From sequence record OQ357823.1: a DNA stretch of 43,449 bases; one strand, written 5' to 3'. The position numbers and the translations under genes were made by a program. Shown piece by piece: positions 5,783 through 42,026 of the stretch; within the stretch, counting starts at the first letter, position 1; the number at the start of each line of letters is the position of its first letter. The notes under the pieces were generated by a model, which was not told the DNA's origin, ran no database searches, and was given only the letters and a program-made list of their open reading frames with translations. This DNA comes from Escherichia phage CY1_Cui-2023.

Positions 5783-5825
5783 AATATACCTAAAGATAGC
5801 CAGTTGTCTTTAGCAAATCGTGCTA
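5783..5825 (-). promoter_or_regulatory. dyad-operator promoter (TAGCA-cgatt-TGCTA) with -10 TATATT, for the Rha-like gene
   Basis: Dyad 5811-5825 read on minus strand; TATATT exactly 30 bp downstream (5788-5783). Confidence 0.5.
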
Positions 5826-7478: not shown

Positions 7479-7521
7479 CAGCACGAATTGCTAAAACAAA
7501 ACGGGATGACTTAGGTATAGT
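7479..7521 (+). promoter_or_regulatory. dyad-operator promoter (CAGCA-cgaat-TGCTA) with -10 TATAGT
   Basis: Dyad 7479-7493; -10 at 7516-7521 exactly 30 bp from dyad centre; leader AATCAACAACGAACGAGG precedes ATG 7551. Confidence 0.55.
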
Positions 7522-7550
7522 TATCCAATCAACAACGAACGAGGTTAAAG

Positions 7551-10272: not shown

Positions 10273-11196
10273 TTAGTTTAGTAAGTCGTTGGCTTTGTAT
10301 ATTTTCTTGCGTATTCCTGTTTTAAATGACCTCCCGTCGTTAGGAATCACCACATCAACATTACGATCGTCAGCGACAGCGAGTATATCAGTATCACAAT
10401 CGCGGCAAGCAATCCTGAACCTTCTTGACCTGTCGCGGTGGATAACCATCTCCATATTGTAACAGGAGAAAGCAACAAACACCTCGCGACCCCCAGTAGC
10501 AAGGTGAACATGTACGCCATCAATGTAATTGTCGACAACATAAGTGTAACTATTATCCTGCCTAGAACCAATAACGTAAACAGAATCACGAGTGTAATCA
10601 CCAGCAAGGAACTTAACATTTGAATCCTCATCAATAAACATTACGTTACAAAACTCATCACCAAGCCCATCCTCATAAACCATAGAGCATGGGGTTGCGT
10701 GAATCATTGAACCATCCTTAGCGATACCAACATCAAAACCATCACTAAGGTAAATACCCTCGTATGTCGTGAGTGGACTTGATTCGACTCTCATGGTTCT
10801 CTCCATTACCTCCAGAACTTTCTCGTGGTCGACATGGGCACCCATTTTGTATCGCTGAGTTCTCGACGCTTGCTTGTTTGCTTTAACTATAACCTCAATT
10901 GGTGTTAAGTTCAGCCAGTCACCAAGCAAATTTACTGAATCGGCGAAGGACAATCCAGTGCACTTCATGACCCATCCTATACCTGTATCATTACCGCACT
11001 GACTGCAAATTGCAGCGCCATTACCTTTCTCGTTATTTAATTCATCAGTAAAACGAAACCTATCCTTACCAAAGCAGTAAGGGCATGGCCCGTGTTTCTT
11101 GCTAAGGTTTTCTTTTGTCCAGCCCATGTGAGATTCGTAAAACTTTGACCACATGCCCTTCATTTTTGACAAAACTTCATTCTTATCGTGATGCAT
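10273..11196 (-). CDS. DNA primase (zinc-ribbon plus TOPRIM-like)
   Basis: CPYC...CSQC zinc-binding motif near N-terminus followed by acidic TOPRIM-like region; position beside helicase. Confidence 0.6.
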   Translation of the reverse strand: MHHDKNEVLSKMKGMWSKFYESHMGWTKENLSKKHGPCPYCFGKDRFRFTDELNNEKGNGAAICSQCGNDTGIGWVMKCTGLSFADSVNLLGDWLNLTPIEVIVKANKQASRTQRYKMGAHVDHEKVLEVMERTMRVESSPLTTYEGIYLSDGFDVGIAKDGSMIHATPCSMVYEDGLGDEFCNVMFIDEDSNVKFLAGDYTRDSVYVIGSRQDNSYTYVVDNYIDGVHVHLATGGREVFVAFSCYNMEMVIHRDRSRRFRIACRDCDTDILAVADDRNVDVVIPNDGRSFKTGIRKKIYKANDLLN

Positions 11197-11236
11197 AAAA
11201 AAGCCCTCGCATTTAACTTGAGGGCATTATACATAC

Positions 11237-11719
11237 TCATTCAGATCTTTCTTTAGCTTTTCGTGCGGCTTCGTTGGCAATCTTATTCTTTCGCCATGGT
11301 CGACAGGGTGGCTTTGTTGCTAGTTCTGCATCGGTAACTACGCGAAGCATATGGCGCTTCTTGCATCGAAGTGTTAGCGGTTTTCCGTTTCCGTCGAATT
11401 GCAGGTCTGGTCGGCAGAATGTAGCTCGAAATCCCTCCTTATTTCGCTTGTACGCATTATGTGCTCGCTGAGCCCCTCGAGCCGAAATCATACCGCGGTT
11501 AAACCATTCCGATACAGCTTGGTTGGACACATTTAACTGCTTTGCGATGTTCGCCTTTGTACCGTAGAAATCAAGAACCATCTCCAGGCGAGCACGTAGC
11601 CCAGCCTTTACCTCATCTTTCAATACGTAGTAGCCTGATGGTCGTTTGCGTTGCTTTTTGTCTTTTGTGCGCACGGTTCCGTTATTGCCGTTAATAGTTC
11701 GCTTGTCGATTTCACACAT
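11237..11719 (-). CDS. putative HTH DNA-binding protein (Cro/YdaS-like), 160 aa
   Basis: Segment KQLNVSNQAVSEWFNRG resembles a helix-turn-helix recognition helix; basic N-terminus. Confidence 0.45.
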   Translation of the reverse strand: MCEIDKRTINGNNGTVRTKDKKQRKRPSGYYVLKDEVKAGLRARLEMVLDFYGTKANIAKQLNVSNQAVSEWFNRGMISARGAQRAHNAYKRNKEGFRATFCRPDLQFDGNGKPLTLRCKKRHMLRVVTDAELATKPPCRPWRKNKIANEAARKAKERSE

Positions 11720-13810: not shown

Positions 13811-14226
13811 AAGTTACAGACAAAACTGACTACCTCGAGTTCTATGGCGGCCCGGTGAAGTCATGCCCGAAGGAAGACGAAGAACAAATCTTTTGCTCTG
13901 ATTGGGTTAAGTATAACTATCCGCAGGTTGTTTACTGGCACACAGTTAATGAATCAATGAAGAGCATTGGTCAGGCAAGGAAAGACCAGGCTAAAGGACT
14001 TCTTAAAGGCGTATCAGACTGCCTATTTCTAATACCTGAGTCATTACGAGGAAGTTATCCATTTGGCGCAATAGAGCTAAAGAGGGCTGGGAAAACACAG
14101 GCTAGCCCAGTAAGTGATGAGCAAAAGTCATTCCTAAAAAGCGTAAGGGAATCAGGCGGTTTCGCAGGAGTTGCCTACGGCAGAGATGGTTTTCTTGCTG
14201 CATTCGCAGAGATGATTAGAAAATAG
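13807..14226 (+). CDS. VRR-NUC domain nuclease
   Basis: DCLFL...IELKRAGK...QKSFLKSVRESGGFAGVAYG matches the VRR-NUC PD-(D/E)XK pattern; ATGA overlap with helicase stop. Confidence 0.7.
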   Translation: MKVTDKTDYLEFYGGPVKSCPKEDEEQIFCSDWVKYNYPQVVYWHTVNESMKSIGQARKDQAKGLLKGVSDCLFLIPESLRGSYPFGAIELKRAGKTQASPVSDEQKSFLKSVRESGGFAGVAYGRDGFLAAFAEMIRK

Positions 14227-14266
14227 CACGAATTGCTAAAGACGAATTGATGAAGTGGTGTATTAT
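14224..14266 (+). promoter_or_regulatory. dyad-operator promoter (TAGCA-cgaat-TGCTA) with -10 TATTAT
   Basis: Dyad 14224-14238 overlaps the TAG stop of the VRR-NUC gene; -10 at 14261-14266; leader ATCGAAACGAAAC. Confidence 0.55.
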
Positions 14267-14304
14267 CACTTCATCGAAACGAAACACACGAAGAGAGAAA
14301 GAAA

Positions 14305-15344: not shown

Positions 15345-15425
15345 AGTACGCCGTCCTAGTAGCATTAGTACCACTGTTTAGCTTTACTATCTTATATTTT
15401 ATCGTGATGAACTAAGGATTTGAAA

Positions 15426-16559
15426 ATGACAGTAGCAAAGATTACCAACGATCAGCTAATCGAAGAACTTAAAAACGGCATGACTAACAAGGCGATTGCG
15501 GAGAAGTACGACATGAACATTCGCAACGTTGAACTTCGTCGCAGTAAGTTAGCTAAGAGTGGTTTGTTTGGGCATGGCAATGATGGTATCAAGAAGTTAG
15601 TGCCGGACGGCTATTTAGTCAAGGGTACTTCAACCATGATTGATGCGGATGGGAATGAGAAGCTGCGCTGGGTTAAGACGAGCGTTGATAATGAACGCCT
15701 TGAAATTATGCTCGAGCAAGCGCGAGAGGCTTTCTGTTCTGAGTTGCCAAAGTGTGAGGAAGTTAAGCATTCAGGCAAAGATACAAACCCTGACCTAATG
15801 ACACTGTATCCAATTTTCGACATACATATTGGAATGATGGCCCATCGCCACGAGTCTGGTGAAAATTATGACACGGCAACGGCAGAAAAACTAATGGGCT
15901 CATACTTTGACCATGCAATATCAGTTTCGCCAGCTTCAGAAAAGGCAGTCATCCTTGTTGGCGGTGATTATCTCCACTCAGATGGTCTTGAGGCGGTAAC
16001 TCCAGCTAGTGGCCACTGCCTTGACCAAGATAGCCGTTACGCTAAGTTAGTCTACATCGCAATTAGATCAATTCGTGGCGCTGTAGAAAAGATGCTTAAA
16101 AAGCATAAAAGTGTTGACATTCAAATTATCGAGGGAAATCATGACCAAAGCGGCATGATCTGGCTTCGGGCTGCGATGGCTGCATTTTATGAAAATGAGA
16201 GTCGTGTCTTTGTTGATGTAAGCCCTGCGATTATGCACAAGACAAGATTTGGCTCAACACTACTTGGCTACACTCATGGTCACACAATGAAGAAAGCGGA
16301 AGGTAGACTTGCAGCTATGGCAACCGATTACAGGAAAGACTTTGGTGAATGCGAGTTCGTTTATTGCCATTCCGGGCATTTTCACCACGCAACAGTAACA
16401 GAGTGCACTCTTGGTATTGACGAAGTACATCCAGCACTAGCAAGCAAGGATGCGTATGCAGCACGAGGGGGGTGGCGCTCATATCGTCAGGCTGCCGCGA
16501 TTGTTTATCACAAAGAGTTTGGCGAGGTTGGTCGTCATATCTATCGACCTGGAATGTAA
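15426..16559 (+). CDS. calcineurin-like metallophosphoesterase with N-terminal HTH-like extension
   Basis: Motifs DIHIG, GGDYLHSDG, EGNHDQ, GHT, GHFHH in the canonical metallophosphatase order; N-terminal ~120 aa contains TNKAIAEKYDMNIRNVE; AGGA SD before ATG 15426. Confidence 0.65.
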   Translation: MTVAKITNDQLIEELKNGMTNKAIAEKYDMNIRNVELRRSKLAKSGLFGHGNDGIKKLVPDGYLVKGTSTMIDADGNEKLRWVKTSVDNERLEIMLEQAREAFCSELPKCEEVKHSGKDTNPDLMTLYPIFDIHIGMMAHRHESGENYDTATAEKLMGSYFDHAISVSPASEKAVILVGGDYLHSDGLEAVTPASGHCLDQDSRYAKLVYIAIRSIRGAVEKMLKKHKSVDIQIIEGNHDQSGMIWLRAAMAAFYENESRVFVDVSPAIMHKTRFGSTLLGYTHGHTMKKAEGRLAAMATDYRKDFGECEFVYCHSGHFHHATVTECTLGIDEVHPALASKDAYAARGGWRSYRQAAAIVYHKEFGEVGRHIYRPGM

Positions 16560-16563
16560 TAAA

Positions 16564-16606
16564 TAGCACTTTTTGTTAAGAAATCCCAGAGAAATCTGGG
16601 TATATT
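16564..16606 (+). promoter_or_regulatory. dyad-operator promoter (TAGCA-ctttt-TGTTA) with -10 TATATT
   Basis: Dyad 16564-16578; hairpin CCCAGAGAAATCTGGG in the spacer; -10 16601-16606; leader AATCAAACACAAACGAGATGG. Confidence 0.55.
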
Positions 16607-17234: not shown

Positions 17235-17789
17235 ATGAAAAAGTTAATCATCCTTAATGGACCCCCAGGTGCTGGAAAAGATACAGTTGCAGATATCATT
17301 GTTAAACTTGGAATTTGCAAGGATAAGGTTTCTTTCAAATCACCTATGTTTAATGTGGCTAAGAGCATGCTATCAAGCGATGAGTTTGATGGATTTATTA
17401 AGAATTACGATGATCGAGAGTACAAAGAATCACCACATGAATTTCTTGGTGGAATGACTGTTCGTCAATTTATGATTTGGATTAGCGAATCAGTGATGAA
17501 GCCAGTTTTTGGTGATGAGGTTTTCGGTAAAAGGCTAGCTCAGTCTCTTGGCAATGGTTGCCACATCTGTTCAGATGGTGGATTTGCAAGTGAAATTGAG
17601 CCACTAATTGAAAGTGGTGTTGAGGTTACATTGGTTAGGCTTCATAGACCTGGTTACACTTTCGAAGGAGATAGTAGGTCATACATTAGCGGCCTCTGCG
17701 CAAGGGAAATTGATATTGATGTTATTGAAGGTGATATTAAAATAACTACAGAAAAAGTGATTGATGCAATAAATAGCACGAATCGCTAA
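17235..17789 (+). CDS. deoxynucleoside monophosphate kinase (T4 gp1-like P-loop kinase)
   Basis: N-terminus KKLIILNGPPGAGKDTVADII and internal VTLVRLHRPG parallel T4 dNMP kinase. Confidence 0.6.
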   Translation: MKKLIILNGPPGAGKDTVADIIVKLGICKDKVSFKSPMFNVAKSMLSSDEFDGFIKNYDDREYKESPHEFLGGMTVRQFMIWISESVMKPVFGDEVFGKRLAQSLGNGCHICSDGGFASEIEPLIESGVEVTLVRLHRPGYTFEGDSRSYISGLCAREIDIDVIEGDIKITTEKVIDAINSTNR

Positions 17790-21167: not shown

Positions 21168-21197
21168 TACTTCTCTCCGTATTGTTTCTGAGCGGCC

Positions 21198-21240
21198 ATT
21201 ATATCAACAGCCGCTTATAATGCATTATCAATTCGTGCTG
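21198..21240 (-). promoter_or_regulatory. dyad-operator promoter variant (CAGCA-cgaat-TGATA) with consensus -10 TATAAT, for the 527-aa gene
   Basis: Dyad 21226-21240 on minus strand; TATAAT (reverse complement of 21198-21203) exactly 30 bp downstream. Confidence 0.5.
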
Positions 21241-21594
21241 CTATTTGTAAGATGATTCAAATAGGTAAGTCTGGCAAAGAGTGTAGAAACCAACATCTTC
21301 GCTTCGATATAGCTGCCATGCATTACCATCTTCGTCGTAAATGTAACCAGCAGACTGACCCATCCCGCTATGCATTAGCACCTGGTATCTCTTTCCTTCT
21401 TTGAAATCCTTCTTAACGCCAGATTTGTGGTTAACATGTGTCACGTAAAGCGTTCTGGTCTTAATGTATTTACCACGTTCTTCCAGATTAACCCATTTGC
21501 CATCTTTCTTGATTTGCTCGACACCATCTTTAACGCGAGCTTTAAACAGTTGGTTGTCTTTGCTAATGAAATTTTTAGTTATGGTAGTAGTCAT
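21241..21594 (-). CDS. hypothetical protein, 117 aa
   Basis: ORF; ATG overlaps the stop of the upstream small ORF. Confidence 0.5.
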   Translation of the reverse strand: MTTTITKNFISKDNQLFKARVKDGVEQIKKDGKWVNLEERGKYIKTRTLYVTHVNHKSGVKKDFKEGKRYQVLMHSGMGQSAGYIYDEDGNAWQLYRSEDVGFYTLCQTYLFESSYK

Positions 21595-21758
21595 TATTCA
21601 GCCCTCTCTTTTGTAGTCCACATGAATTTGTTTGGTACTGATTTGCGCACGATACGCACAACAATCTTATCAACTTTCTGAACTAAACCGTAAATCTTTC
21701 CATCAAGCGAGGCCCTGAAAACTGCCTCTTCCATCGCGTCGTAAAAGTTGTCAAACAT
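21594..21758 (-). CDS. hypothetical small protein, 54 aa (below ORF-track cutoff)
   Basis: ATG at 21758, TAA at 21594-21596 overlapping the next ATG; translation MFDNFYDAMEEAVFRASLDGKIYGLVQKVDKIVVRIVRKSVPNKFMWTTKERAE. Confidence 0.4.
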   Translation of the reverse strand: MFDNFYDAMEEAVFRASLDGKIYGLVQKVDKIVVRIVRKSVPNKFMWTTKERAE

Positions 21759-21790
21759 GATTACTTGTTCTCTTTCGTTTCGATGAGGAA

Positions 21791-21833
21791 ACTATACAAC
21801 AAAAGCCCCGAAGGGCTTTAGCAATTCGTGCTA
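21791..21833 (-). promoter_or_regulatory. dyad-operator promoter (TAGCA-cgaat-TGCTA) with -10 TATAGT and a terminator-like hairpin in the spacer
   Basis: Dyad 21819-21833; hairpin AGCCC-CGAA-GGGCT 21804-21817; TATAGT (reverse complement of 21791-21796); leader CATCGAAACGAAAGAGAAC before ATG 21758. Confidence 0.5.
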
Positions 21834-21979
21834 TTTCTCGCCTTCTCAATCGCCTTAAGCATAATCTCGTGAGATTCAAGCAAGTCCTCGTTGAACCATT
21901 CCCCGCAAGGCCAGCCCTTGCCGCTGTAAGAACTAATAACTTCCAGATCAAAATAGTTAATCTCAGATGGTAATAGCAT
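21818..21979 (-). CDS. hypothetical small protein, 53 aa (below ORF-track cutoff)
   Basis: ATG 21979 with SD AGGTGA; translation MLLPSEINYFDLEVISSYSGKGWPCGEWFNEDLLESHEIMLKAIEKARNSTNC; last four codons and stop lie inside the dyad operator. Confidence 0.4.
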   Translation of the reverse strand: MLLPSEINYFDLEVISSYSGKGWPCGEWFNEDLLESHEIMLKAIEKARNSTNC

Positions 21980-22182
21980 TATTCAATCACCTTAAAAGTT
22001 GCGATGCCTGGGATGACGACGTAATCAAGGCATTTAAGAGCCTGAAACGTGTCGTGATGCTTATGTGGACGCTCTCCGGTAACAAGGCACATGTCATCTT
22101 TGAAATCGGTAGCGTTGTATTCAGAGCCCTTATTGAACGCGTCGTTAAAGTCTTTAATGATATTGGTGCAAAGTAGTTTCAT
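21979..22182 (-). CDS. hypothetical protein, 67 aa
   Basis: ORF in a leftward string of coupled small genes. Confidence 0.45.
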   Translation of the reverse strand: MKLLCTNIIKDFNDAFNKGSEYNATDFKDDMCLVTGERPHKHHDTFQALKCLDYVVIPGIATFKVIE

Positions 22183-23767: not shown

Positions 23768-24250
23768 ATGAATATCGCCAGGCAAGATGGACTTTCGCCA
23801 GTCAGAATCGTAATAAATGCAAATGGGTATCGTCAGTCAACGCCATTCTGGGGTTCGATTGATACGTCAGATGTGTACTCAGGTGATGAGCTTGGTGTGC
23901 TAATTAAAATCATCAGGAAGATGGGAGTTAACGGGAAAGGAGTGGTTGGTGTCAGGTCTGTATATGAAGGAGCTCGAAAGGTTAAGCCTTTTGTTGGGCG
24001 TAATGGAGTGATGTTGCTCATCAAGGACAAGCTAATCCCAGAGCTCGACAAGATGAATGTTACATGTCTAATTGGCGATAAGGTTTATGTTCACCCCGCA
24101 ATACTAAATGAGTGTTTGGAGCCTAACTTCAAGGTCTACGAAGGTAAGCATCCTAGTAGACTACCATACCACTTGCGGTACAGCGAGGAAGAGGTTGAGG
24201 CGGCGATGGAGTTTTATCGGGAAGCTAAATTACTCCTGAATGGACAATAG
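23768..24250 (+). CDS. mini-paralog of the 527-aa P-loop protein (N- plus C-terminal segments only); upstream in-frame ATG 23726 is cut off by an amber codon
   Basis: Residues align with the N-terminus (RVAINANGYRQS) and C-terminus (GKGVVGVRS..ARKVKPF...TCLIGDK.Y) of the 19584-21167 product; the reading frame is continuous from ATG 23726 except for TAG at 23759-23761. Confidence 0.45.
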   Translation: MNIARQDGLSPVRIVINANGYRQSTPFWGSIDTSDVYSGDELGVLIKIIRKMGVNGKGVVGVRSVYEGARKVKPFVGRNGVMLLIKDKLIPELDKMNVTCLIGDKVYVHPAILNECLEPNFKVYEGKHPSRLPYHLRYSEEEVEAAMEFYREAKLLLNGQ

Positions 24251-24290
24251 CACGAATTGCTAAACAATCGCCGGAGAAATCCGGCATAAT
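24248..24290 (+). promoter_or_regulatory. dyad-operator promoter (TAGCA-cgaat-TGCTA) with -10 CATAAT
   Basis: Dyad 24248-24262 begins in the TAG stop of the mini-paralog; hairpin CCGGAGAAATCCGG in spacer; -10 24285-24290; leader ATCGACAACACGATGG. Confidence 0.55.
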
Positions 24291-25029: not shown

Positions 25030-25180
25030 CACATGTTTATTCCCGAAATGTGATGAATTTGTTGAGGATTTAATCTACTTCAATGAGAAATACGGTGACA
25101 CGTTTGAGTGCGATGGCGATACAGACGAAGTATTAGCAACTTTTGATAGAGGGCCAGATGTAGACAGCACGAATAGCTAA
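25022..25180 (+). CDS. hypothetical small Cys-containing protein, 52 aa, GTG start (tentative)
   Basis: GTG 25022 preceded by GAGGAT SD; ends DSTNS-stop inside the dyad operator like several other genes; overlaps previous ORF in another frame. Confidence 0.25.
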   Translation: MLNTCLFPKCDEFVEDLIYFNEKYGDTFECDGDTDEVLATFDRGPDVDSTNS

Positions 25181-25207
25181 ACGTGACAGGCATTGATGCC
25201 ATATAAT
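25165..25207 (+). promoter_or_regulatory. dyad-operator promoter variant (CAGCA-cgaat-AGCTA) with consensus -10 TATAAT
   Basis: Dyad 25165-25179; hairpin GGCATTGATGCC in spacer; TATAAT 25202-25207; leader AATCAAACAACGAGAGG. Confidence 0.55.
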
Positions 25208-25901: not shown

Positions 25902-25977
25902 GTTCTGCTGGCGTAACAGGATAACGCAAAGACCTCCTAAGTCTTAGTTGCTGGTTCGAGTCCAGCGCGGAACACCA
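25902..25977 (+). tRNA. tRNA-Arg (anticodon CCU)
   Basis: Hand-folded cloverleaf: acceptor GTTCTGC/GCGGAAC (one G-U), D-arm GCGT-AACAGGATA-ACGC, anticodon arm AAGAC-CTCCTAA-GTCTT (CCT at 25936-25938), T-arm GCTGG-TTCGAGT-CCAGC, discriminator A plus encoded CCA; 76 nt. Confidence 0.8.
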
Positions 25978-26298: not shown

Positions 26299-26823
26299 AT
26301 GAAAGACGAAAACTTCACCAGCCAGGCGCAAGAAAAGATTCGCTCTGGCAACTTCAAAGCCATGTACAACAAAAAGTATTCTGACATTACAACTCTGTCC
26401 AAAAACCGAATAATGACCCCAGAGCAGCTATTCGACCTGGCCGTGAAATACTTCTCATGGGCTGAGAGCCAGGCAATCAAGGCAATTGAGACAGCCAGCT
26501 TCCAGGGTGTCGTAACCGAGAATCTGGTGCACAAGCCACGAGTCTTCACACTAACAGGATTCTGCCTTTACTGCGGTGTTACCCATAGCGCAATAGAGAA
26601 ATGGAGGAAGTCGGCGGGTTATGACGAGGTAATTGCATTCATTGATTCCGTGATTCGCGAGCAGAAGTATCAGCTGGCAGCGTCTGGCATTGTTAACCCT
26701 GGCATGATTTCCAAAGAACTTGGCATCGATAAGCCGCAGGAGATTACTATAAGCAATAACTCTTCAGCTAACGACGTTGGCACGATGAAGGAAGCGCTGG
26801 AGTCTGTGATTAGTAAGCTGTAG
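26299..26823 (+). CDS. terS: terminase small subunit
   Basis: 174-aa ORF with strong SD AAAGGAGG, positioned immediately upstream of the HNH and large terminase genes. Confidence 0.6.
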   Translation: MKDENFTSQAQEKIRSGNFKAMYNKKYSDITTLSKNRIMTPEQLFDLAVKYFSWAESQAIKAIETASFQGVVTENLVHKPRVFTLTGFCLYCGVTHSAIEKWRKSAGYDEVIAFIDSVIREQKYQLAASGIVNPGMISKELGIDKPQEITISNNSSANDVGTMKEALESVISKL

Positions 26824-26862
26824 CACTTTTTGTTAAAAGAAGAGGCCCAATCAATGAGATAA
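26821..26862 (+). promoter_or_regulatory. dyad-operator promoter (TAGCA-ctttt-TGTTA) with -10 GATAAT, upstream of HNH gene
   Basis: Dyad 26821-26835 overlaps terS stop; -10-like GATAAT 26857-26862 sits in the loop of hairpin GGCCCA...TGGGCC. Confidence 0.45.
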
Positions 26863-26891
26863 TGGGCCCAACAAACTAGCGAGGTGATCAT

Positions 26892-27398
26892 ATGAATTGG
26901 CATGATATTTTTGAATATAGAGACGGGCTTTTAATAAGAAAGGTAAAAGTAGCAAATGTATCAAAGGTTGGAGAGGTGGCCGGAAGAGTTGATAAATTTG
27001 GCTATGTGATACTAAAGTATAGACAAAAAGCATACAGGTGTCACAGGGTGGTGTGGGAGATGCACAATGGAGCAATCCCTAAAGGCATGTACATAGATCA
27101 CATAAACCAAAATAGAAGTGACAATAGAATAGAGAACTTAAGGTTAGTAAGCAATAAAGAGAACTCAAATAACAGATCACTATCATCAAGAAATAAAAGC
27201 GGAATAAACGGTGTAAGCTGGTGCAAAAGAGAGAATAGATGGCTTGTTCAGGCTAGAGAGTTTGGTAAAACAGTCTTCATATGCTACAAGGACACTATAG
27301 AGGAGGCTGCATTGGCAAGGTCGCAGTATGACAAATTGAACGGATATCATGAAAATCATGGCTCTGAAAATAAAGGCTACCTAAATACGAGAGCGTAA
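26892..27398 (+). CDS. HNH homing endonuclease with AP2-like DNA-binding domain
   Basis: HNH core (CHRVVWEMHNG...IDHINQNRSDNRIENLRLVSNKEN) followed by AP2-like segment (KSGINGVSW...W.A..F.....DTIEEA); inserted between terS and terL. Confidence 0.8.
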   Translation: MNWHDIFEYRDGLLIRKVKVANVSKVGEVAGRVDKFGYVILKYRQKAYRCHRVVWEMHNGAIPKGMYIDHINQNRSDNRIENLRLVSNKENSNNRSLSSRNKSGINGVSWCKRENRWLVQAREFGKTVFICYKDTIEEAALARSQYDKLNGYHENHGSENKGYLNTRA

Positions 27399-32046: not shown

Positions 32047-32991
32047 ATGGCCATTAAATTTGATGCAGAACAAGCAAAAATCACCGCTCACCTAGAGCAA
32101 ATGGGCGTAGATAAGGCTGATGCTGCTGGTATCTGGACCGTTAAGCAGTTAACCGCATCACTGAATCGCGCTTACGAAAAAGAATACGCAGACAACTCAG
32201 TTGTCAACATCTTCCCAGTAACCAACGAAATCCCTGGTCACGCGAAATACTTCGAATACCCTGAGTTCGATGGTGTTGGTATTGCTCAGATCATCGCTGA
32301 TTACTCTGACGACCTGCCGCTGGTTGATGCTTTCATGACCGAGAAGCAGGGTAAAGTATTCCGCTTCGGTAATGCGTTTATGATCTCAGTTGATGAGATT
32401 AAAGTTGGCGCTGCTACTGGTCAGTCACTGTCCGCTCGCAAACAGGCTTTGGCTTTTGAAGCTCACGACAACCTGCTTGATAAACTGGTATGGTCTGGCT
32501 CTGCACCTCACGGCATCGTAGGCGTATTTAACCAGCCGAACATCAACAACGTTGTTGCAACTCCAAACTGGAGCAATCCAATTAACGCGGTTAACGACGT
32601 TACCGCAATGATTGATGCTGTAGAAACCAGCACACAGGGCTTCCACCATGTAACTGACATTCTGCTGCCAGCTTCCGCTCGCCGTGTAATGCAGCGCCTT
32701 GTTGATAATACAACCCTGAGCTATGGCGAGTTGTTTACTCGTAACAACCCAGGTGTAACCCTGCGCTTTATGCAGTTCCTGGATAACTACGATGGTGCTG
32801 GCGGTAAAGCTGCGCTGGCGTTTGAAAAGGATCCGCTCAACATGAGCATCGAGATTCCGGAAGTTACAAACGTTTTACCTGGTCAGCCTCGTGATCTTCA
32901 CTTCCGCTTCCCTGTAACCTCTAAGGCGACAGGTTTGATTTTATATCGCCCTCTTACAGTGGCAGCTATCAAAGGAATTACCTTTGCCTAA
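32047..32991 (+). CDS. major capsid protein
   Basis: 314-aa ORF with SD AAGGAA, positioned after portal/scaffold/decoration genes; abundant-protein-like codon usage. Confidence 0.7.
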   Translation: MAIKFDAEQAKITAHLEQMGVDKADAAGIWTVKQLTASLNRAYEKEYADNSVVNIFPVTNEIPGHAKYFEYPEFDGVGIAQIIADYSDDLPLVDAFMTEKQGKVFRFGNAFMISVDEIKVGAATGQSLSARKQALAFEAHDNLLDKLVWSGSAPHGIVGVFNQPNINNVVATPNWSNPINAVNDVTAMIDAVETSTQGFHHVTDILLPASARRVMQRLVDNTTLSYGELFTRNNPGVTLRFMQFLDNYDGAGGKAALAFEKDPLNMSIEIPEVTNVLPGQPRDLHFRFPVTSKATGLILYRPLTVAAIKGITFA

Positions 32992-33034
32992 TAGCACTAA
33001 ATGACAAAACAATACCACCGAAAGGTGGTATTTT
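32992..33034 (+). promoter_or_regulatory. degenerate dyad operator (TAGCA-ctaaa-TGACA) with terminator hairpin in spacer, upstream of second HNH gene
   Basis: Dyad 32992-33006 right after capsid stop; hairpin ACCACC-GAAA-GGTGGT plus TTTTT 33013-33035; weak -10 TATTTT 33029-33034; leader CATCAAAACAATGGAGG. Confidence 0.35.
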
Positions 33035-33062
33035 TGTTTCCATCAAAACAATGGAGGCGAAA

Positions 33063-33659
33063 ATGAAAATTGAAGAACTACTAACTCACGAAGAGCTAAC
33101 ATCAAGACTTGAATCAGATTCTGAAAGTCCCGTTATGACATGGAAAGTAAAGCCGGGAAATGATAGGTTTACAAATGTATGGAATTCAAGGTACGCCGGA
33201 AAGGTTGCTGGAGGTGAATTCACTCCAAACCCAACATGCCCAGAAAGTAAGATGTGGAAGCTATGTATTAAAGTTTCCGGGAAGAAGTTTCACGTTTCAA
33301 TGCATAAGTTAAAGTGGTTTTATCATCACGGGAGTTGGCCGACAGGTGAGATAGATCACATTGATGGTAACTCATTAAACAATAGGGTGGAAAACCTAAG
33401 GGTTGTTACTCGAAGTGAGAACATGATGAATACGAGCCTATACAAAAGGAACAAGAGTGGATTTAAAGGTGTTAGCTACGATAAATCAAGGGGGAAGTGG
33501 AAAGCCCAGATACAAAAGGATTGCGGAGATGTAAGGATGGCTAAAAGGTTTGACACAATTGAAGAGGCTAAGGAGTGTTACGACAGTTGGTGTAAAGAAA
33601 TATTCGGCGAGTACGGAAACGCCAATGGGGTTCACGAAGGCGATTGTTTAGTGCTATAA
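33063..33659 (+). CDS. HNH homing endonuclease with AP2-like domain (paralog of 26892-27398)
   Basis: EIDHIDGNSLNNRVENLRVVTRSEN then KSGFKGVSY...GKWKAQI...FDTIEEA, parallel to the first HNH; GGAGG SD before ATG 33063. Confidence 0.8.
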   Translation: MKIEELLTHEELTSRLESDSESPVMTWKVKPGNDRFTNVWNSRYAGKVAGGEFTPNPTCPESKMWKLCIKVSGKKFHVSMHKLKWFYHHGSWPTGEIDHIDGNSLNNRVENLRVVTRSENMMNTSLYKRNKSGFKGVSYDKSRGKWKAQIQKDCGDVRMAKRFDTIEEAKECYDSWCKEIFGEYGNANGVHEGDCLVL

Positions 33660-35688: not shown

Positions 35689-36348
35689 ATGGCCCATCTC
35701 AGCAATGGCACCCAGGTCTTCGTAGAGGGCACTAGGGGTAATACTATCGACGTAACAGCAATTACCAATGCTGTTGCTCCTGTTTTAACTTTGTCCGACG
35801 CCACAGGTATTGCGCGCGGGGATTACCTGCTGTTCACCAGCTCAGCTTCAACACTTCTGGCTGATAAGCAAGTTCGTGTCACCGCGGTATCTGGTTCGGA
35901 CGTAACTGTTGAAGGTATTGATACCTCCAACAACACTAAGTTTCCAGCCGGTTTAACTGGTGAAGTAGTTAAGATTCTTAGCTGGTTTGAAGTTCCTTGT
36001 GTTCAGGATGTATCCACTGACGGCGGCGAACAGCAGTTCGTTAACTTCCAGTGTTTATCTGATGACCGCGAGCAACAGATTCCAACCTATAAGTCTGCGG
36101 TAACTAACACCTACACGTTCGCGCACGAATACACCAACCCGGTATATCCGATTCTGCGTAACTATGATGAGTCTGGTCAGGTTGTTGCTATCCGTCTGTT
36201 CGTGCCTCGCGCTAGTGAGATGCGACTTCAGTCTGGCACTATCTCTTTCAACGACACCCCGAGCATTGGTGTTAACGAAATCGAAACGGTATCCATCGCG
36301 GTATCCATCCGTGGTAGGCTGAGTTCTGTGGCTTCTGAGCTAGTATAA
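35689..36348 (+). CDS. major tail protein
   Basis: 219-aa ORF with SD AAAGGAAA, followed by a strong terminator and then the chaperone and tape-measure genes. Confidence 0.65.
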   Translation: MAHLSNGTQVFVEGTRGNTIDVTAITNAVAPVLTLSDATGIARGDYLLFTSSASTLLADKQVRVTAVSGSDVTVEGIDTSNNTKFPAGLTGEVVKILSWFEVPCVQDVSTDGGEQQFVNFQCLSDDREQQIPTYKSAVTNTYTFAHEYTNPVYPILRNYDESGQVVAIRLFVPRASEMRLQSGTISFNDTPSIGVNEIETVSIAVSIRGRLSSVASELV

Positions 36349-36353
36349 AATTA

Positions 36354-36375
36354 ACCCTCTTCGGAGGGTTTTTTA
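36354..36375 (+). terminator. intrinsic terminator after major tail gene
   Basis: CCCTC-TTCG-GAGGG followed by TTTTTT. Confidence 0.7.
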
Positions 36376-36379
36376 TTGA

Positions 36380-36422
36380 TAGCACTTTTTGTTAAAGACG
36401 TGTGGCAGGGATTTGCTATTAT
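36380..36422 (+). promoter_or_regulatory. dyad-operator promoter (TAGCA-ctttt-TGTTA) with -10 TATTAT
   Basis: Dyad 36380-36394; -10 36417-36422; leader ATCGAAACGAGATGG before ATG 36462. Confidence 0.5.
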
Positions 36423-36461
36423 TACTTTATCGAAACGAGATGGATTATAGAGGTAAACAAA

Positions 36462-37570: not shown

Positions 37571-40543
37571 ATGGCAACTAACGAAATTGCTGGTATCACG
37601 CTAGCCGTCGACGTCGCTCAGGTCGATAAGGGTACGCAATCATTACAGAAATTCAGGCAAGCAAACGAGCAAGCTGCAACGGGAATCAATAGCTTCATCA
37701 ACGCCGAGCTTGTAGCCAAGACTCAAGCAAGGGACACTGCAAGGCAGCTTGAGGAACAGCGCAAATCTTTCGCATCACTTCAGAAAGCCATAGACCCAAC
37801 TGCCGCTAAATTCCAGAAGTTGCAGAAGGCAGCAACTGAATTAGACAAAGCATTTGAATCTGGGATAGTTCCTGATGAAGAATTCTTCAGGCTTGGCTCT
37901 GTTATTGAAACTCAAATCAATAAGCTCAACAGGTCTAAAGCTGCTCTTAGCGAGGAAGGTCGGGCTGCACTCCAGGCATCAATAGACAAAGAAAAGGCAA
38001 CAGCAGCGGCGCAAAAGTTCATTCAATCTCTTGAGAACGAGGCGAATGCAGCAAGCCTTACAAGGACTGAACTGCTTCAGCTTAAGGCTGCTCAGCTAGG
38101 GGTTAGTGACCAAGCTGCGCCTATTATCGACAGGATTGGTAAGGCTGCCGAGGCATCTGCTGTTCAGTTGCAGAAGCAGAGTTCCGCTTTTCTTAAGTCA
38201 GGTTTAAGCGCCGGTCAGTACAAGCAAGCGATTCGCCAGCTACCCGCTCAGATTACAGATATCGGAACTTCCCTTGCTAGCGGCATGCCAGTCTGGCTTG
38301 TTGCAATCCAACAGGGTGGGCAGATTAAGGATAGTTTTGGCGGTATTGGAAATACAGCAAGGTTTGCACTGGCAGCCATTAACCCATTAACAGCAGTTGT
38401 TGGGACTCTAGGCCTGGCTCTTGGCGCTTTGGGTGTTGCGGCTTATCAGGCCGATAAGAATGCTCGAGGACTAGCATCTACGATAACGTTGGTTGGCAAC
38501 TCAACTATCACGTCTACAGCGCAGATAAATCAGGTTGTTGATGGAATTGAGAGATCAACACTAGCTACTCGCGGACTTATTCAGGAAATAGCCAATAGCC
38601 TTGTGGCAAACGGAAACCTAACTCTTACGCAGATAGACAAGATAACTAAGGCAACAGCGCAGTGGGCGGCAGTAACATCAACCGATTCAAAGACCATTCT
38701 CGGGTACTTTGACCAAATTACAAAAGACCCTGTTAAAGGCCTTGCTGAGCTTGATAAGCAATTTAACTTCCTTCAAAGTGGGCAGTTAAAACACATAGAG
38801 AACTTAAGGAAGACAGCGGGAGAGACTGAGGCTGTAACAGCAGCTACTGAGTTATTTGCTAACGTTATGGAAAACAGGCTAGAAGATGTTGCACTAAGCC
38901 TCAATCCGCTAGAAAGTGCATGGAATAGCTTCAGGAAGTTTGTAAGTAATATTTGGGATGATATCGGCAAAAGGACACTTGGTGCTCTTAACTTAATAAC
39001 TGACGTTGTTGCTGGGACGATTGAGCAGATAAGGTCGTTCATAAACTCAGGCGACATTCTTCTTGGTGAATTTGCTATCGCTGCAACCAAGACGCTTCAG
39101 TCAATCCCGGGACTTGGCGATTTAGGCAATGAAGCAATCGCTGAGCAGCAAAAGATTGTCGATGCTGCCAAGAAGCAAAACATTGAGTTAGCTAAAAGCA
39201 TAGCTGAGCGAGACGCGAGAATCAGGAAGGGTGAACTTGGTTATGTCGAGAGCAACAATAACACTAACCTGAGCGGGAATAATGCATCAACAGATAAGGA
39301 GTTCGGAGCAAGGAAGAAAGCGCTAGCAGACGAGCTTGATGCAATAAAGAAATCGAGGAGCGAGAGGAATAAGGCAGTAAAAGAAGAAATGGATTTAACT
39401 TTATCTTATGAATCTGGTGTTCTTGCACTTCAGGCTCAGTTAAAGGCTTTGCAAGAGCATAGGACGATAAATGATGTAATAAGTAACGAACGAAAGCAGC
39501 TATTCCAGGAAGAAGCTAAGTTTGCAATACTTGAACAAAGATATGCTGATGGTAGCCTGACTAAGTCTCAAGCCAAACTGCTAGCGCAGAAGGATATCAT
39601 TCTTGAGCAAGCTAAACAGAAGGCTGAACTTGGTGACCGAATCGTTCTTCAGGAGCGGTCAAACAAGTTACTTGATGACAACCTTAAGAAGACAATACAG
39701 ATTACCAATGAGGCGAAGAATGTTTCACTTGCTGCTGGTCTATCCGAAAGGGAGCGGCAAAGGGCAAGAGAACTTCAGGCGCTAGAGTCCAATCAGTTAA
39801 ACAAAGGTGGATCTGTAGATGATGTTGATTTCCAGAATCTGCTGGAAGCAAGAAAAGAATACTACAGGCAGGAAGATAACCTAAGGTCAGACTGGCAAGC
39901 TGGTGTAACTTCAACGCTTGCTGACTTAACTGAGAAGTACACTGACTTCAACCAAATTGCTAAGGATTTGACTGTCGCAGCTTTTGATGGAATTACCGAC
40001 CAGATTACAAACCTTGTAACCACTGGTGAGACTAATTTCAGGGAGTTCACGGTAAGCATCCTCAAAATGATTGCGAAGATTGCGACACAGCTTCTGATTG
40101 TTAAGGCTATTGAGTCAAGTTTGAGTAGCTTTGGTGGCACTGGCGGCGCAATTGGTTCAATTGGTAGTGCGCTTGGATTTGCTGGCGGCGGCTACACTGG
40201 TGACGGTGGGAAGTATCAACCTGCTGGAACGGTGCACAAAGGTGAATTTGTTTTCACCAAAGAAGCAACCAACAGGATTGGCGTTAAGAACCTGTACAAG
40301 CTGATGCGAGGTTATGCCAATGGTGGCGCTGTTGGTGGGCCTTCTGGCTATGCTAATGGTGGAGTTGTTGGCGGTACAAATGTTAATGTAAGCGGAATCA
40401 CTGTTAACGTGAATTCTGGAATCGGTGGCGGTAATGATGCTAAGGCGATAGAATCTGGAGTCAAGGTTATCGTGGCTGAGGAAATCAGCAAGTCATTCCA
40501 GCAGGGTGGCAGGGCCTTTGCTTTCTTGCGAGGTTATAATTAA
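37571..40543 (+). CDS. tail tape measure protein, 990 aa
   Basis: Very long Ala/Gln/Lys-rich helical ORF with C-terminal Gly-rich segment, located between chaperone and M/L/K/I genes. Confidence 0.85.
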   Translation: MATNEIAGITLAVDVAQVDKGTQSLQKFRQANEQAATGINSFINAELVAKTQARDTARQLEEQRKSFASLQKAIDPTAAKFQKLQKAATELDKAFESGIVPDEEFFRLGSVIETQINKLNRSKAALSEEGRAALQASIDKEKATAAAQKFIQSLENEANAASLTRTELLQLKAAQLGVSDQAAPIIDRIGKAAEASAVQLQKQSSAFLKSGLSAGQYKQAIRQLPAQITDIGTSLASGMPVWLVAIQQGGQIKDSFGGIGNTARFALAAINPLTAVVGTLGLALGALGVAAYQADKNARGLASTITLVGNSTITSTAQINQVVDGIERSTLATRGLIQEIANSLVANGNLTLTQIDKITKATAQWAAVTSTDSKTILGYFDQITKDPVKGLAELDKQFNFLQSGQLKHIENLRKTAGETEAVTAATELFANVMENRLEDVALSLNPLESAWNSFRKFVSNIWDDIGKRTLGALNLITDVVAGTIEQIRSFINSGDILLGEFAIAATKTLQSIPGLGDLGNEAIAEQQKIVDAAKKQNIELAKSIAERDARIRKGELGYVESNNNTNLSGNNASTDKEFGARKKALADELDAIKKSRSERNKAVKEEMDLTLSYESGVLALQAQLKALQEHRTINDVISNERKQLFQEEAKFAILEQRYADGSLTKSQAKLLAQKDIILEQAKQKAELGDRIVLQERSNKLLDDNLKKTIQITNEAKNVSLAAGLSERERQRARELQALESNQLNKGGSVDDVDFQNLLEARKEYYRQEDNLRSDWQAGVTSTLADLTEKYTDFNQIAKDLTVAAFDGITDQITNLVTTGETNFREFTVSILKMIAKIATQLLIVKAIESSLSSFGGTGGAIGSIGSALGFAGGGYTGDGGKYQPAGTVHKGEFVFTKEATNRIGVKNLYKLMRGYANGGAVGGPSGYANGGVVGGTNVNVSGITVNVNSGIGGGNDAKAIESGVKVIVAEEISKSFQQGGRAFAFLRGYN

Positions 40544-41790: not shown

Positions 41791-42000
41791 ATGAAAAGTA
41801 AATTTATTGAATGCGTAAGATCTAGCGAATACTGGAATTTGACTATTGGTGATATCTACACTTTAAATCTCGATGGAGATGAGTCAGAATTATTCATAAA
41901 AGATGACATGGGAACAAAGCTACACCTTGAATACCTTCCTGAGTCATCAATGCTAAGCTTAATTGCGGACCATGATTGTATTTTCACTCATATCGATTAA
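41791..42000 (+). CDS. hypothetical protein, 69 aa (moron-like insert between L and K)
   Basis: ORF with its own SD in a separate intergenic island between two otherwise adjacent tail genes. Confidence 0.45.
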   Translation: MKSKFIECVRSSEYWNLTIGDIYTLNLDGDESELFIKDDMGTKLHLEYLPESSMLSLIADHDCIFTHID

Positions 42001-42026
42001 AACAAAGCAAGATTAGTGTTAAACTA

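Follow-up and report, generated by a model that had tools for sequence, protein, structure and literature searches.

Within the window, that is, the whole 43,449-nucleotide stretch of Escherichia phage CY1_Cui-2023 DNA analysed here (OQ357823.1), the spacer of a putative promoter at 21791-21833 on the minus strand probably serves at the same time as an intrinsic terminator for the gene before it. The same double use is predicted at 33011-33042, and about half of the promoter units of this kind carry a stem-loop on the sense strand. The elements of the first site are listed here from 5' to 3'.

21818-21833, minus strand: repeat TAGCACGAATTGCTAA, a copy of the T1-family direct repeat (consensus aaATAGCACnnnTTGnTAAAA)
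21802-21819, minus strand: terminator-like hairpin AAAGCCC-UUCG-GGGCUUU with a C(UUCG)G tetraloop, from the terminator scan and from folding
21797-21803, minus strand: T-run TTTGTTG directly after the stem and before the -10; tail UUUGUUGU, 6/8 U
21791-21796, minus strand: -10-like hexamer TATAGT, 21 nt after the repeat
21756-21790, minus strand: leader with conserved CATCGAAACGAAA, purine-rich ribosome site and the ATG (21758-21756) of a 54-aa ORF

Positions 21791-21833 make up exactly one repeat unit on the minus strand. The repeat itself (21833-21818) reads gaaaTAGCACGAATTGCTAAAg, matches the T1-family consensus and is one of 17 oriented copies; its terminal TAA (21820-21818) is the stop codon of an upstream 53-aa ORF (21979..21818), and the hairpin starts 1 nt past that stop codon. 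With 7 pairs, 4 of them G-C, and a UUCG loop, the hairpin gives a spacer fold of -8.0 kcal/mol (shuffle p = 0.01). Its core stem, which reads AGCCCTTCGGGGCT at 21817-21804 on the minus strand and AGCCC-CGAA-GGGCT on the plus strand, is short (5 bp), and the fold in a 61-nt context is no better than that of shuffles (z = -1.27). From the start of the repeat to the ATG at 21758 is a distance of 75 nt.

In a comparison of 8 kb, the window proved ~99.7% identical to Escherichia phage TR3 (PP069512.1), a T1-like siphovirus (Drexlerviridae, Braunvirinae) whose record annotates CDSs and one tRNA and holds no regulatory features. T1-like phages are common and widely used coliphages whose transcription programme is largely unmapped, and the literature searched yielded no transcript-end maps for them. 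Five Braunvirinae genomes (AN_ECEAS, phiA2-1, IME542, Msk and 12397V) and T1 (NC_005833) were added to the window, giving 105 distinct units which, since orthologues are included, are not fully independent.

The motif AGCAC-N5-GCTA, with at most one mismatch allowed, occurs 34 times in the window against 9.2 +/- 3.0 times in shuffled sequence. Seventeen oriented units consist of the 16-mer TAGCAC-N5-G(C/T)TAA, 21 nt and a TATAAT-like -10, the definition of a unit being that a TAnnnT-type hexamer is present 19-23 nt after the 16-mer. The spacing from repeat to hexamer is 21 nt in 15 of the 17 units, 20 nt in one and 22 nt in one, and the hexamer found at 20-22 nt is TAnnnT or CATAAT in every case. 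All 17 units precede an ORF that has a purine-rich ribosome site, most of them continuing into the conserved leader CATCGAAACGA. The repeat contains a partial dyad, TAGCA-N5-TGCTA, and supplies the stop codon of an upstream ORF through its TAG in 26 and its terminal TAA in 18 units of the 105-unit set. Between repeat and -10, T at -17 and G at -14/-13 are enriched, with little other base-specific information.

Judged by its sequence, the "dyad operator" of the preliminary description is the published direct repeat of the T1 family. Passages of the TLS paper (PMC11447400, 2024) describe aaATAGCACnnnTTGnTAAAA as a direct repeat present in 21 copies, oriented with transcription and ~76 nt upstream of start codons, and report it for T1, Rtp and Rogue1 too; a role as stoperator, enhancer-binding site or UP element is proposed and left undecided there. 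The repeat of the window agrees with those passages in consensus and in its orientation relative to transcription, with a comparable distance to the ATG (~75 nt in the window unit), and the T1-family repeat is present in ~17-24 copies per genome. The same passages itemise terminators and repeats separately, quote a 'transcripton' idea, and contain no mention of a fixed 21-nt distance from repeat to -10 or of intervening hairpins. Recognisable sigma-70 promoters are reported to be scarce in T1-like phages, numbering 3 to 10 in the passages on TLS and the AHP24 group, and the AHP24 paper gives terminators and promoters as counts alone.

At 21833(-) the position of a -35 hexamer is taken by AAGCCC (2/6) and is occupied by the hairpin, while -35-like sequences in other units are weak, AAGACA or TAAACA (4/6). 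That a hairpin replaces such a weak sequence suggests that a -35 hexamer is apparently dispensable, though it is no evidence that an activator is involved; given its lack the 21833 unit would need the repeat or an extended -10-like contact. TTGCTA within the repeat was considered as a -35 element and rejected, lying 22 nt from the -10 and thus too far away. The repeat was also considered as a boxB-like RNA hairpin; it does fold with a 5-bp stem and a 5-nt loop, and the change from GCTAA to GTTAA keeps a G.U pair, but this reading was dropped because the units do not maintain the pairing: 12 have G.A or G.G at pair 3-13, and 12 of 105 have A.A at pair 5-11. The Pfam scan points to no binder for the repeat, since the small ORFs flanking the site gave no match and the sole candidate regulator seen, a 160-aa protein at 11237-11719(-), gave a Cro-like match below threshold.

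An intrinsic terminator was taken to consist of a stem of at least 5 bp, rich in G+C and closed by a 3-8-nt loop, at least 5 U in the 8 nt directly after it, and a co-directional gene end upstream. Four hairpins of the window have such a stem, namely 21802-21819(-), 33011-33032(+), 16585-16600 and 24270-24285, and among the window copies only the first two combine stem, U-tract and gene end. The preliminary description had assigned T-runs and a terminator function to these two copies. Both T-runs are present, at 21797-21803 (minus strand, the promoter's own) and at 33033-33042; both hairpins have all of the sequence features just named, lie nested between repeat and -10, and are found by the terminator scan. 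For these two, the proposed insulation from read-through is a reasonable reading of the sequence. As a general account of the nested hairpins a terminator function does not hold, most of them having no U-tract. The other hairpins of the window are as follows.

33011-33042, plus strand: terminator AAUACCACC-GAAA-GGUGGUAUU followed by UUUGUUUCCA; stem 33011-33032, 9 pairs; found by the scan, z = -4.15
16585-16600, plus strand: hairpin CCCAGA-GAAA-UCUGGG in the spacer of unit 16564-16606; -9.5 kcal/mol, z = -3.28
24270-24285, plus strand: hairpin GCCGGA-GAAA-UCCGGC in the spacer of unit 24248-24290; -10.7 kcal/mol, z = -4.63
25189-25200, plus strand: weak hairpin GGCA-UUGA-UGCC in the spacer of unit 25165-25207; -4.8 kcal/mol, p = 0.09, z = -0.94
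26844-26868, plus strand: stem GGCCCA...UGGGCC, its loop holding the -10 GATAAT (26858-26863) of unit 26821-26863
14247-14277, plus strand: 14-bp stem enclosing the -10 TATTAT (14261-14266) of unit 14224-14266
21191-21215, minus strand: stem AGCGGCUGUUG...UAAUGGCCGCU enclosing the -10 TATAAT (21203-21198) of unit 21240-21198; -14.0 kcal/mol
7504-7526, plus strand: stem GGAUGACU...AGUUAUCC overlapping the -10 TATAGT (7516-7521) of unit 7479-7521; -9.7 kcal/mol, z = -3.62

The hairpin at 33011-33032(+) (spacer fold -9.5 kcal/mol; tail UUUGUUUC, 6/8 U) is nested in unit 32992-33034, which precedes an HNH endonuclease gene (33051-33659), and the -10-like TATTTT of that unit (33029-33034) is part of the stem end and U-tract of the terminator. 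Upstream, a 314-aa ORF (32047-32991) whose homologues in T1 and IME542 are annotated as major head protein ends 20 nt before the hairpin. Relatives without the HNH gene have a stand-alone terminator, GCCCTCTTCGGAGGGCTTTTTTT, directly after the capsid gene, where T1 too has an annotated one. The nested hairpin is the sole terminator candidate of the window after the capsid gene and thus occupies a conserved terminator position.

Terminators annotated in T1 (NC_005833) show the same overlap with repeat units: four rho-independent terminators (38973-39001, 39998-40024, 41980-42007 and 35930-35971) each fall on a unit's spacer and -10, an overlap implicit in the coordinates only. One of these, 41980-42007, is the orthologue of the window hairpin 16585-16600. 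In the window that hairpin adjoins the -10 TATATT and has a poor U-tract (UAUAUUAA, 4/8), and at 24270-24285 the -10 CATAAT begins with the final C of the hairpin, whose tail AUAAUUAC (3/8 U) offers no U-tract. The U-tracts of these window versions are poorer than those of their T1 counterparts, which are annotated terminators with better tails running through the -10 (TATTATTGTTTT). The scan flags the minus strand at 16585 and 24270; their reading as opposite-strand terminators was rejected, there being no convergent genes at these places, and is also contradicted by a conserved GNRA loop on the plus strand.

The commonest class of hairpin encloses the -10 hexamer. It makes up 33 of 53 strong hairpins in the family. 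Counted from the first base of the hexamer, its 3' arm ends 10-17 nt downstream, approximately where transcription is inferred to start, and the A-rich leader comes next, with on average 1.7 T in 8 nt. In the window, the stems at 14247, 21191, 26844 and 7504 have 0-1 U in the 8 nt that follow. Having no U-tract, the stems of this class are not canonical terminators, and the term "terminator" accounts for a minority of the hairpins only. The largest of them in the window, at 14247-14277, has an isolated energy of -16.3 kcal/mol (66-nt fold -21.1, z = -5.38) and a 3' arm that covers the inferred start site; the unit at 26821-26863 lies upstream of another HNH gene (26892-27398). This class was not found annotated in the records and papers examined.

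For each unit, the 21-nt spacer plus one base was folded and compared with dinucleotide shuffles and random 22-mers. Strong spacer hairpins are present in units 16564, 21833(-), 24248 and 32992 (shuffle p <= 0.01 each), and 4 of the 17 spacers fold at -6 kcal/mol or below (-8 to -10.7), against 0.30 expected from random 22-mers; at a threshold of -5 the enrichment has a binomial p of 0.005. Nine spacers are essentially unstructured, including those of units with an abutting upstream gene (5015, 17774). A wider search, covering spacer, -10 and 18 nt beyond with a cut-off of -7 kcal/mol for a simple hairpin, found one in 8 of 17 units, as opposed to 5% of dinucleotide shuffles (p ~1e-6) and 8% of random genome 45-mers (p ~2e-5). 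Across the 105 units of the 7 genomes, hairpins at or below -7 are present in 50%, against 5-8% in controls; a third of the units have one at -11 kcal/mol or below, against 0.6-1.7% in controls; and spacers alone reach -6 in 18%, against 2.4%. About half of the promoter units have no hairpin.

The hairpins are thus real and non-random. Chance inverted repeats in short AT-rich intergenic DNA are a highly improbable source of the whole set: hairpins are 6 to 20 times as frequent as in random genome windows and dinucleotide shuffles, one strand is favoured, and structure is kept through sequence turnover with compensatory changes, as described below. That said, 25189-25200 alone is not significant (tail 4/8 T; energy above the -7 kcal/mol cut-off for tabulation), several 4-bp stems are likewise no better than shuffles, and in the 15-30 kb block the total of terminator-like sites returned by the scan is similar to that from shuffled sequence. 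Chance is contradicted for the strong copies and stands only for the weak ones.

All six inverted repeats quoted in the preliminary description are in the sequence. The coordinates given for 21804-21817, 26844-26868 and 33014-33029 are exact and the other three were off by 1-3 nt, the corrected positions being 16585-16600, 24271-24284 (24270-24285 with an extra G-C pair) and 25189-25200. Its figure of at least seven copies holds if stems enclosing the -10 are counted, among them 14247-14277, 21191-21215(-) and 7504-7526, which it did not list; solid hairpins confined to the spacer number only four, and 26844-26868, presented as one of these, has its 3' arm past the -10 hexamer.

Folding on both strands, one of the checks proposed at the outset, gave an enrichment of hairpins with a strong asymmetry. 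On one strand or the other, 55 units have a strong hairpin; the sense strand is the more stable in 44 of these and the antisense strand in 11 (Wilcoxon 7e-8), with mean stabilities of -11.8 and -7.7 kcal/mol, respectively; dinucleotide shuffles of the 55 show no sense bias (128 vs 179). Isolated mismatches, counted in stems of at least 7 Watson-Crick pairs, are G.T or T.G in 23 cases and A.C or C.A in 3 (p = 4e-5), even though no base is as abundant as A. The stems are capped by RNA tetraloops, most often GAAA or AGGA, with UUCG at 21802-21819, and since the loop of the 24270 hairpin varies between GAAA, GTAA and GCAA in different phages, the GNRA pattern is kept there. These observations point to structure selected on the sense strand, as RNA.

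The arms AGCCC, CCCAGA, GCCGGA, ACCACC and GGCA are unrelated to one another, and a duplex-DNA protein site is excluded by this lack of shared sequence between copies. The second protein-binding site suggested in the preliminary description is thereby not supported, stems differing between copies and orthologues alike and the excess of G.T over A.C being strand-asymmetric. More broadly, the inverted repeats might act in DNA, either as an N4-like non-template stem-loop that presents the -10 or as a dyad for a second regulatory protein. Early promoters of phage N4 contain a DNA hairpin, conserved in sequence and position, that is recognised by the virion (phage) RNA polymerase. The likeness lies in an inverted repeat at the core of a phage promoter: many of the present repeats are centred on or beside the -10, the conserved spacer bases T at -17 and G at -14/-13 form part of their 3' arms, and G.T pairs are also tolerated in single-stranded DNA. 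Even so, an action in DNA is very unlikely. Arms without relation between copies and orthologues fit no single sequence-specific protein, and the RNA-strand bias speaks against a cruciform or duplex site. In-spacer arms of 4-6 bp are too short to extrude. Arms and position both vary here, unlike in N4, with the hairpin anywhere from -33 to +5 and half of the units without one, and a phage RNA polymerase is neither annotated in TR3 nor found in the passages on TLS.

The hairpins also track an abutting upstream gene, which would be unexpected of a promoter element. An upstream ORF was counted as abutting if it is co-directional, at least 45 aa long and ends within 25 nt of the repeat or inside it. 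Of the 74 units that have such an ORF, 59% carry a strong hairpin; of the remaining 31, 29% do (Mann-Whitney p = 6e-4; Fisher p = 0.005). In keeping with this, no hairpin is present at 5825(-) and 11733(+), which are divergent first promoters; 5015(-) and 17774(+) are exceptions to the trend.

Comparison with related phages had been proposed in the preliminary description, with loss of the repeats there as its refutation; the related phages keep the hairpins. At the unit after the exonuclease gene (window 15420-16559), a hairpin is found at the orthologous place in 10 phages, built from seven unrelated stems: CCCAGA/TCTGGG, TACCCGC/GCGGGTA, AGCCGC/GCGGCT, AGCGCC/GGCGCT, GCCGTA/TGCGGC (with a U.G pair), AGCGAC/GTCGCT and CCTCA/TGAGG. 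GAAA is the usual loop; these hairpins were judged by folding statistics for each sequence, and their register shifts by 1-2 nt between phages. Orthologues of 21791-21833, defined by the 53-aa upstream ORF, are of the UUCG type in the window, AN_ECEAS, phiA2-1 (weakened) and Msk (a variant), while the site of the same ORF in IME542, 12397V and Rtp-like phages has a CGCA-AGGA-UGCG hairpin adjoining the -10; in two more distant relatives no unit was found at this site. The stem enclosing the -10 of unit 14224 aligns without gaps in 8 phages, with 98% of cells paired, two pairs changed on both sides (G-C to A-U and G-C to U-A) and four changed to or from G.U; slid alignments of this family are 27-67% paired, and 11 of 500 shuffles reach the observed score. 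Orthologues of 21191-21215 likewise have compensating arms, GAGCGGG/CCCGC and AGAGGUC/GGCCUCU. Hairpin structure is conserved while stem sequence turns over.

Selection on RNA would also be expected if the hairpins were specific RNA signals, such as processing sites, sites for an RNA-binding protein (CsrA, for example) or marks of read-through transcripts. Besides the strong selection on the sense strand, this explanation has in its favour that 33 of 53 strong hairpins enclose the -10, end near the inferred start and run into the leader CATCGAAACGA without a U-tract, and that 16 of 105 spacers have GGA in a 4-nt loop at a constant offset. It is nonetheless unlikely, as loops and stems are heterogeneous (GAAA, UUCG, AGGA, or a loop holding the -10) and present no single recognition motif. 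Stems of 5-14 bp are too short for a typical RNase III site. For a CsrA-type signal, the loop at 21802-21819 is UUCG, the other strong loops of the window are GAAA, and a GGA loop is present in the window only at 36380. No Rfam family matched the hairpins in a scan of 21500-22100 with E up to 1, and over the whole window the only match at the gathering threshold is a tRNA (25902-25974). Hairpins with a GGA loop are frequent in the relatives, but the window has almost none.

The stems that enclose the -10 might themselves constitute a dedicated device, by which a cistron would have two transcript fates (in decay, processing or translation) or a single-stranded -10 would aid opening. We consider this rather doubtful; if true, each repeat unit would combine DNA and RNA control in one composite module, with ~20 copies in a genome throughout the Drexlerviridae. 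For the stems with no U-tract or a poor one (16585, 24270, 14247, 21191, 7504, 26844), comparison with known systems suggests that they are most likely leaky terminators or end-protecting intercistronic stem-loops. Stem-loops that stabilise 3' termini occur in polycistronic bacterial mRNAs, and C(UUCG)G hairpins were reportedly described in T4 intercistronic regions by Tuerk and colleagues in 1988. A stabiliser role here is proposed by analogy with T4 and bacterial operons, whose intercistronic hairpins are alike in their short GC stems, UUCG or GNRA caps, location at gene ends and selection on the RNA strand, and of which some terminate and some do not. Unlike these, the present hairpins are systematically embedded in the putative core promoter of the next gene, and RNA initiated at that promoter would be without them.

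The favoured reading, in which the spacer serves as terminator of one gene and promoter of the next, can be put as a sequence of steps. Polymerase arriving from upstream would transcribe the repeat, stop codon included, and then AAAGCCC-UUCG-GGGCUUU with its tail UUUGUUGU, where a fraction of transcripts would end. Polymerase recruited to the repeat and -10 would start ~20 nt downstream of the hairpin, yielding an RNA that does not contain the hairpin and hence would not be terminated. The same steps would apply at 33011-33042, after the capsid gene, and termination at the U-tract would also keep elongating polymerases out of the promoter. Terminator and promoter can share DNA because the terminator is read as RNA and the spacer holds little base-specific information. 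In units of this design, RNA would start downstream of the 3' arm or inside it, so that the stem cannot form in promoter-initiated RNA and only read-through RNA would be affected. With so little information in the spacer and stop codons supplied by the repeat, gene-end RNA structure has room only inside the next promoter; tight gene packing thus places gene-end stem-loops within the promoter of the gene that follows.

Much of this is explained by known principles. The repeat, the presence of terminators in T1-like genomes and stable tetraloop hairpins between phage genes are known already, and the two true-looking terminators look like a compact variant of known signals, with no new kind of element. 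The feature is real, and the literature searched holds no description of the geometry from repeat to -10, of systematic nesting of sense hairpins or of the class that encloses the -10. A recent preprint (bioRxiv 10.64898/2026.02.12.705533) reports that T7 class II terminators act as sigma-70 promoters, which was found by accident, and calls it dogma that promoter and terminator sequences are "unrelated". As in that case, a single short DNA would serve E. coli RNA polymerase as a promoter and also signal termination; the T7 signals, however, are hairpin-independent and serve T7 RNA polymerase, whereas here hairpin terminators would act on the host polymerase within repeated, natural putative promoters.

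The repeat of T1-like phages thereby gains a fixed partner, a -10 at 21 nt, and gene-end RNA hairpins are seen to be packed systematically into the same 40 bp as the promoter. Such packing would let genes abut, with stop codons in the repeat, and yet stay insulated. The predicted transcript 3' ends are 21797-21803(-) and 33033-33042(+), and each -10 should be followed by a 5' end at a distance of 6-8 nt. Annotation pipelines need not treat an overlap of predicted terminator and predicted promoter as a conflict, and for synthetic biology the sites would offer a compact natural terminator-promoter junction whose own transcripts are predicted to escape the terminator.

Two further units of the window have a terminator close by. 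At 36380(+), a stand-alone terminator (36353-36379) lies just upstream of the repeat, and this unit is the only one of the window with a GGA loop. At 11268(-), the -10 adjoins the 5' arm of the terminator GCCCTC...GAGGGCTTTTTT (11195-11225), and the orthologue of this unit is T1 unit 35994, which overlaps the annotated T1 terminator 35930-35971.

Across the 105 units of the seven genomes, spacer position -5, counted from the -10 hexamer, is T in 67, position -2 is G in 71 and position -1 is G in 51. The pattern is reminiscent of a TRTG or extended -10-like element, and the in-spacer hairpins use these bases for their 3' arms. Many spacers of the related phages (L002-L006) carry 4-bp stems closed by AGGA, TGGA or CGGA loops (cgCAAGGATGcg, gcCATGGATGgc), and GGA is found at spacer offset -8 in 16/105 units. 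In the window, the only such GGA-loop hairpin lies at 36396-36416; examples in the relatives are as follows.

L004 (related phage genome), 11770, GGA-loop stem
L005 (related phage genome), 16796, GGA-loop stem
L006 (related phage genome), 17129, GGA-loop stem

These GGA-loop hairpins are similar either to the consensus for CsrA sites or to a sequence of Shine-Dalgarno type.

One unit is directly joined to a terminator.

11195-11268, minus strand, unit CCGCACGAAAAGCTAA...TATAAT with its terminator

This unit is located within the 3' end of a Cro-like ORF (11719..11237), and its -10 borders directly on the terminator GCCCTC...GAGGGCTTTTTT, at the 5' arm. The orthologous T1 unit, 35994, overlaps an annotated T1 terminator (35930-35971).

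The gene upstream also draws its stop codon from the repeat, an observation that covers all 17 units of the window and the other six genomes. An ORF abuts the repeat in 74 units of the seven genomes: 26 of these ORFs stop at the TAG of TAGCAC, 18 at the terminal TAA of the repeat, and 22 directly before the repeat, at offset 0 or -1. Examples from the window are:

24248-24250, 14224-14226 and 26821-26823, TAG stops in the repeat
21820-21818, 25178-25180 and 17787-17789, TAA stops in the repeat

Over all units, the central bases of the repeat 16-mers fall into the classes CGAAT (37 units), CTTTT (33) and C(T/A)AAT (11); central-base classes were previously noted in the TLS paper (PMC11447400). 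The second half-site is degenerate (pair 3-13 is G.T in 28 units and G.A in 9), so the repeat is a "dyad" only in part.

Most units in all seven genomes share a conserved leader, CATCGAAACGA(A/G)A, 6-7 nt past the -10, its onset lying at approximately the inferred start site.

21785-21773, minus strand, leader
14272-14284, leader
36428-36437, leader

This leader could enhance translation, act as a processing site or be an initial transcribed sequence.

Each of the two HNH endonuclease genes in the window has its own repeat unit.

26892-27398, HNH endonuclease gene (Pfam HNH_3)
33051-33659, HNH endonuclease gene (Pfam HNH_3 plus AP2 domain)

Because the repeat variant of these units, TAGCACTAAATG(A/G)(C/T)AA, recurs at HNH cassettes elsewhere in the relatives, the sequences suggest that the promoter moves together with the homing gene.

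Other features of the window include a tRNA gene and bidirectional terminator-like hairpins where transcription directions meet.

25902-25974, tRNA gene (Rfam RF00005, 59 bits; tRNA-Arg in the annotation of phage TR3)
3392-3411, 8670-8689 and 19224-19240, bidirectional hairpins, among them two copies of AAAGCCCC-GAAA-GGGGCTTT, plus AGCCCCGTAATGGGGCT
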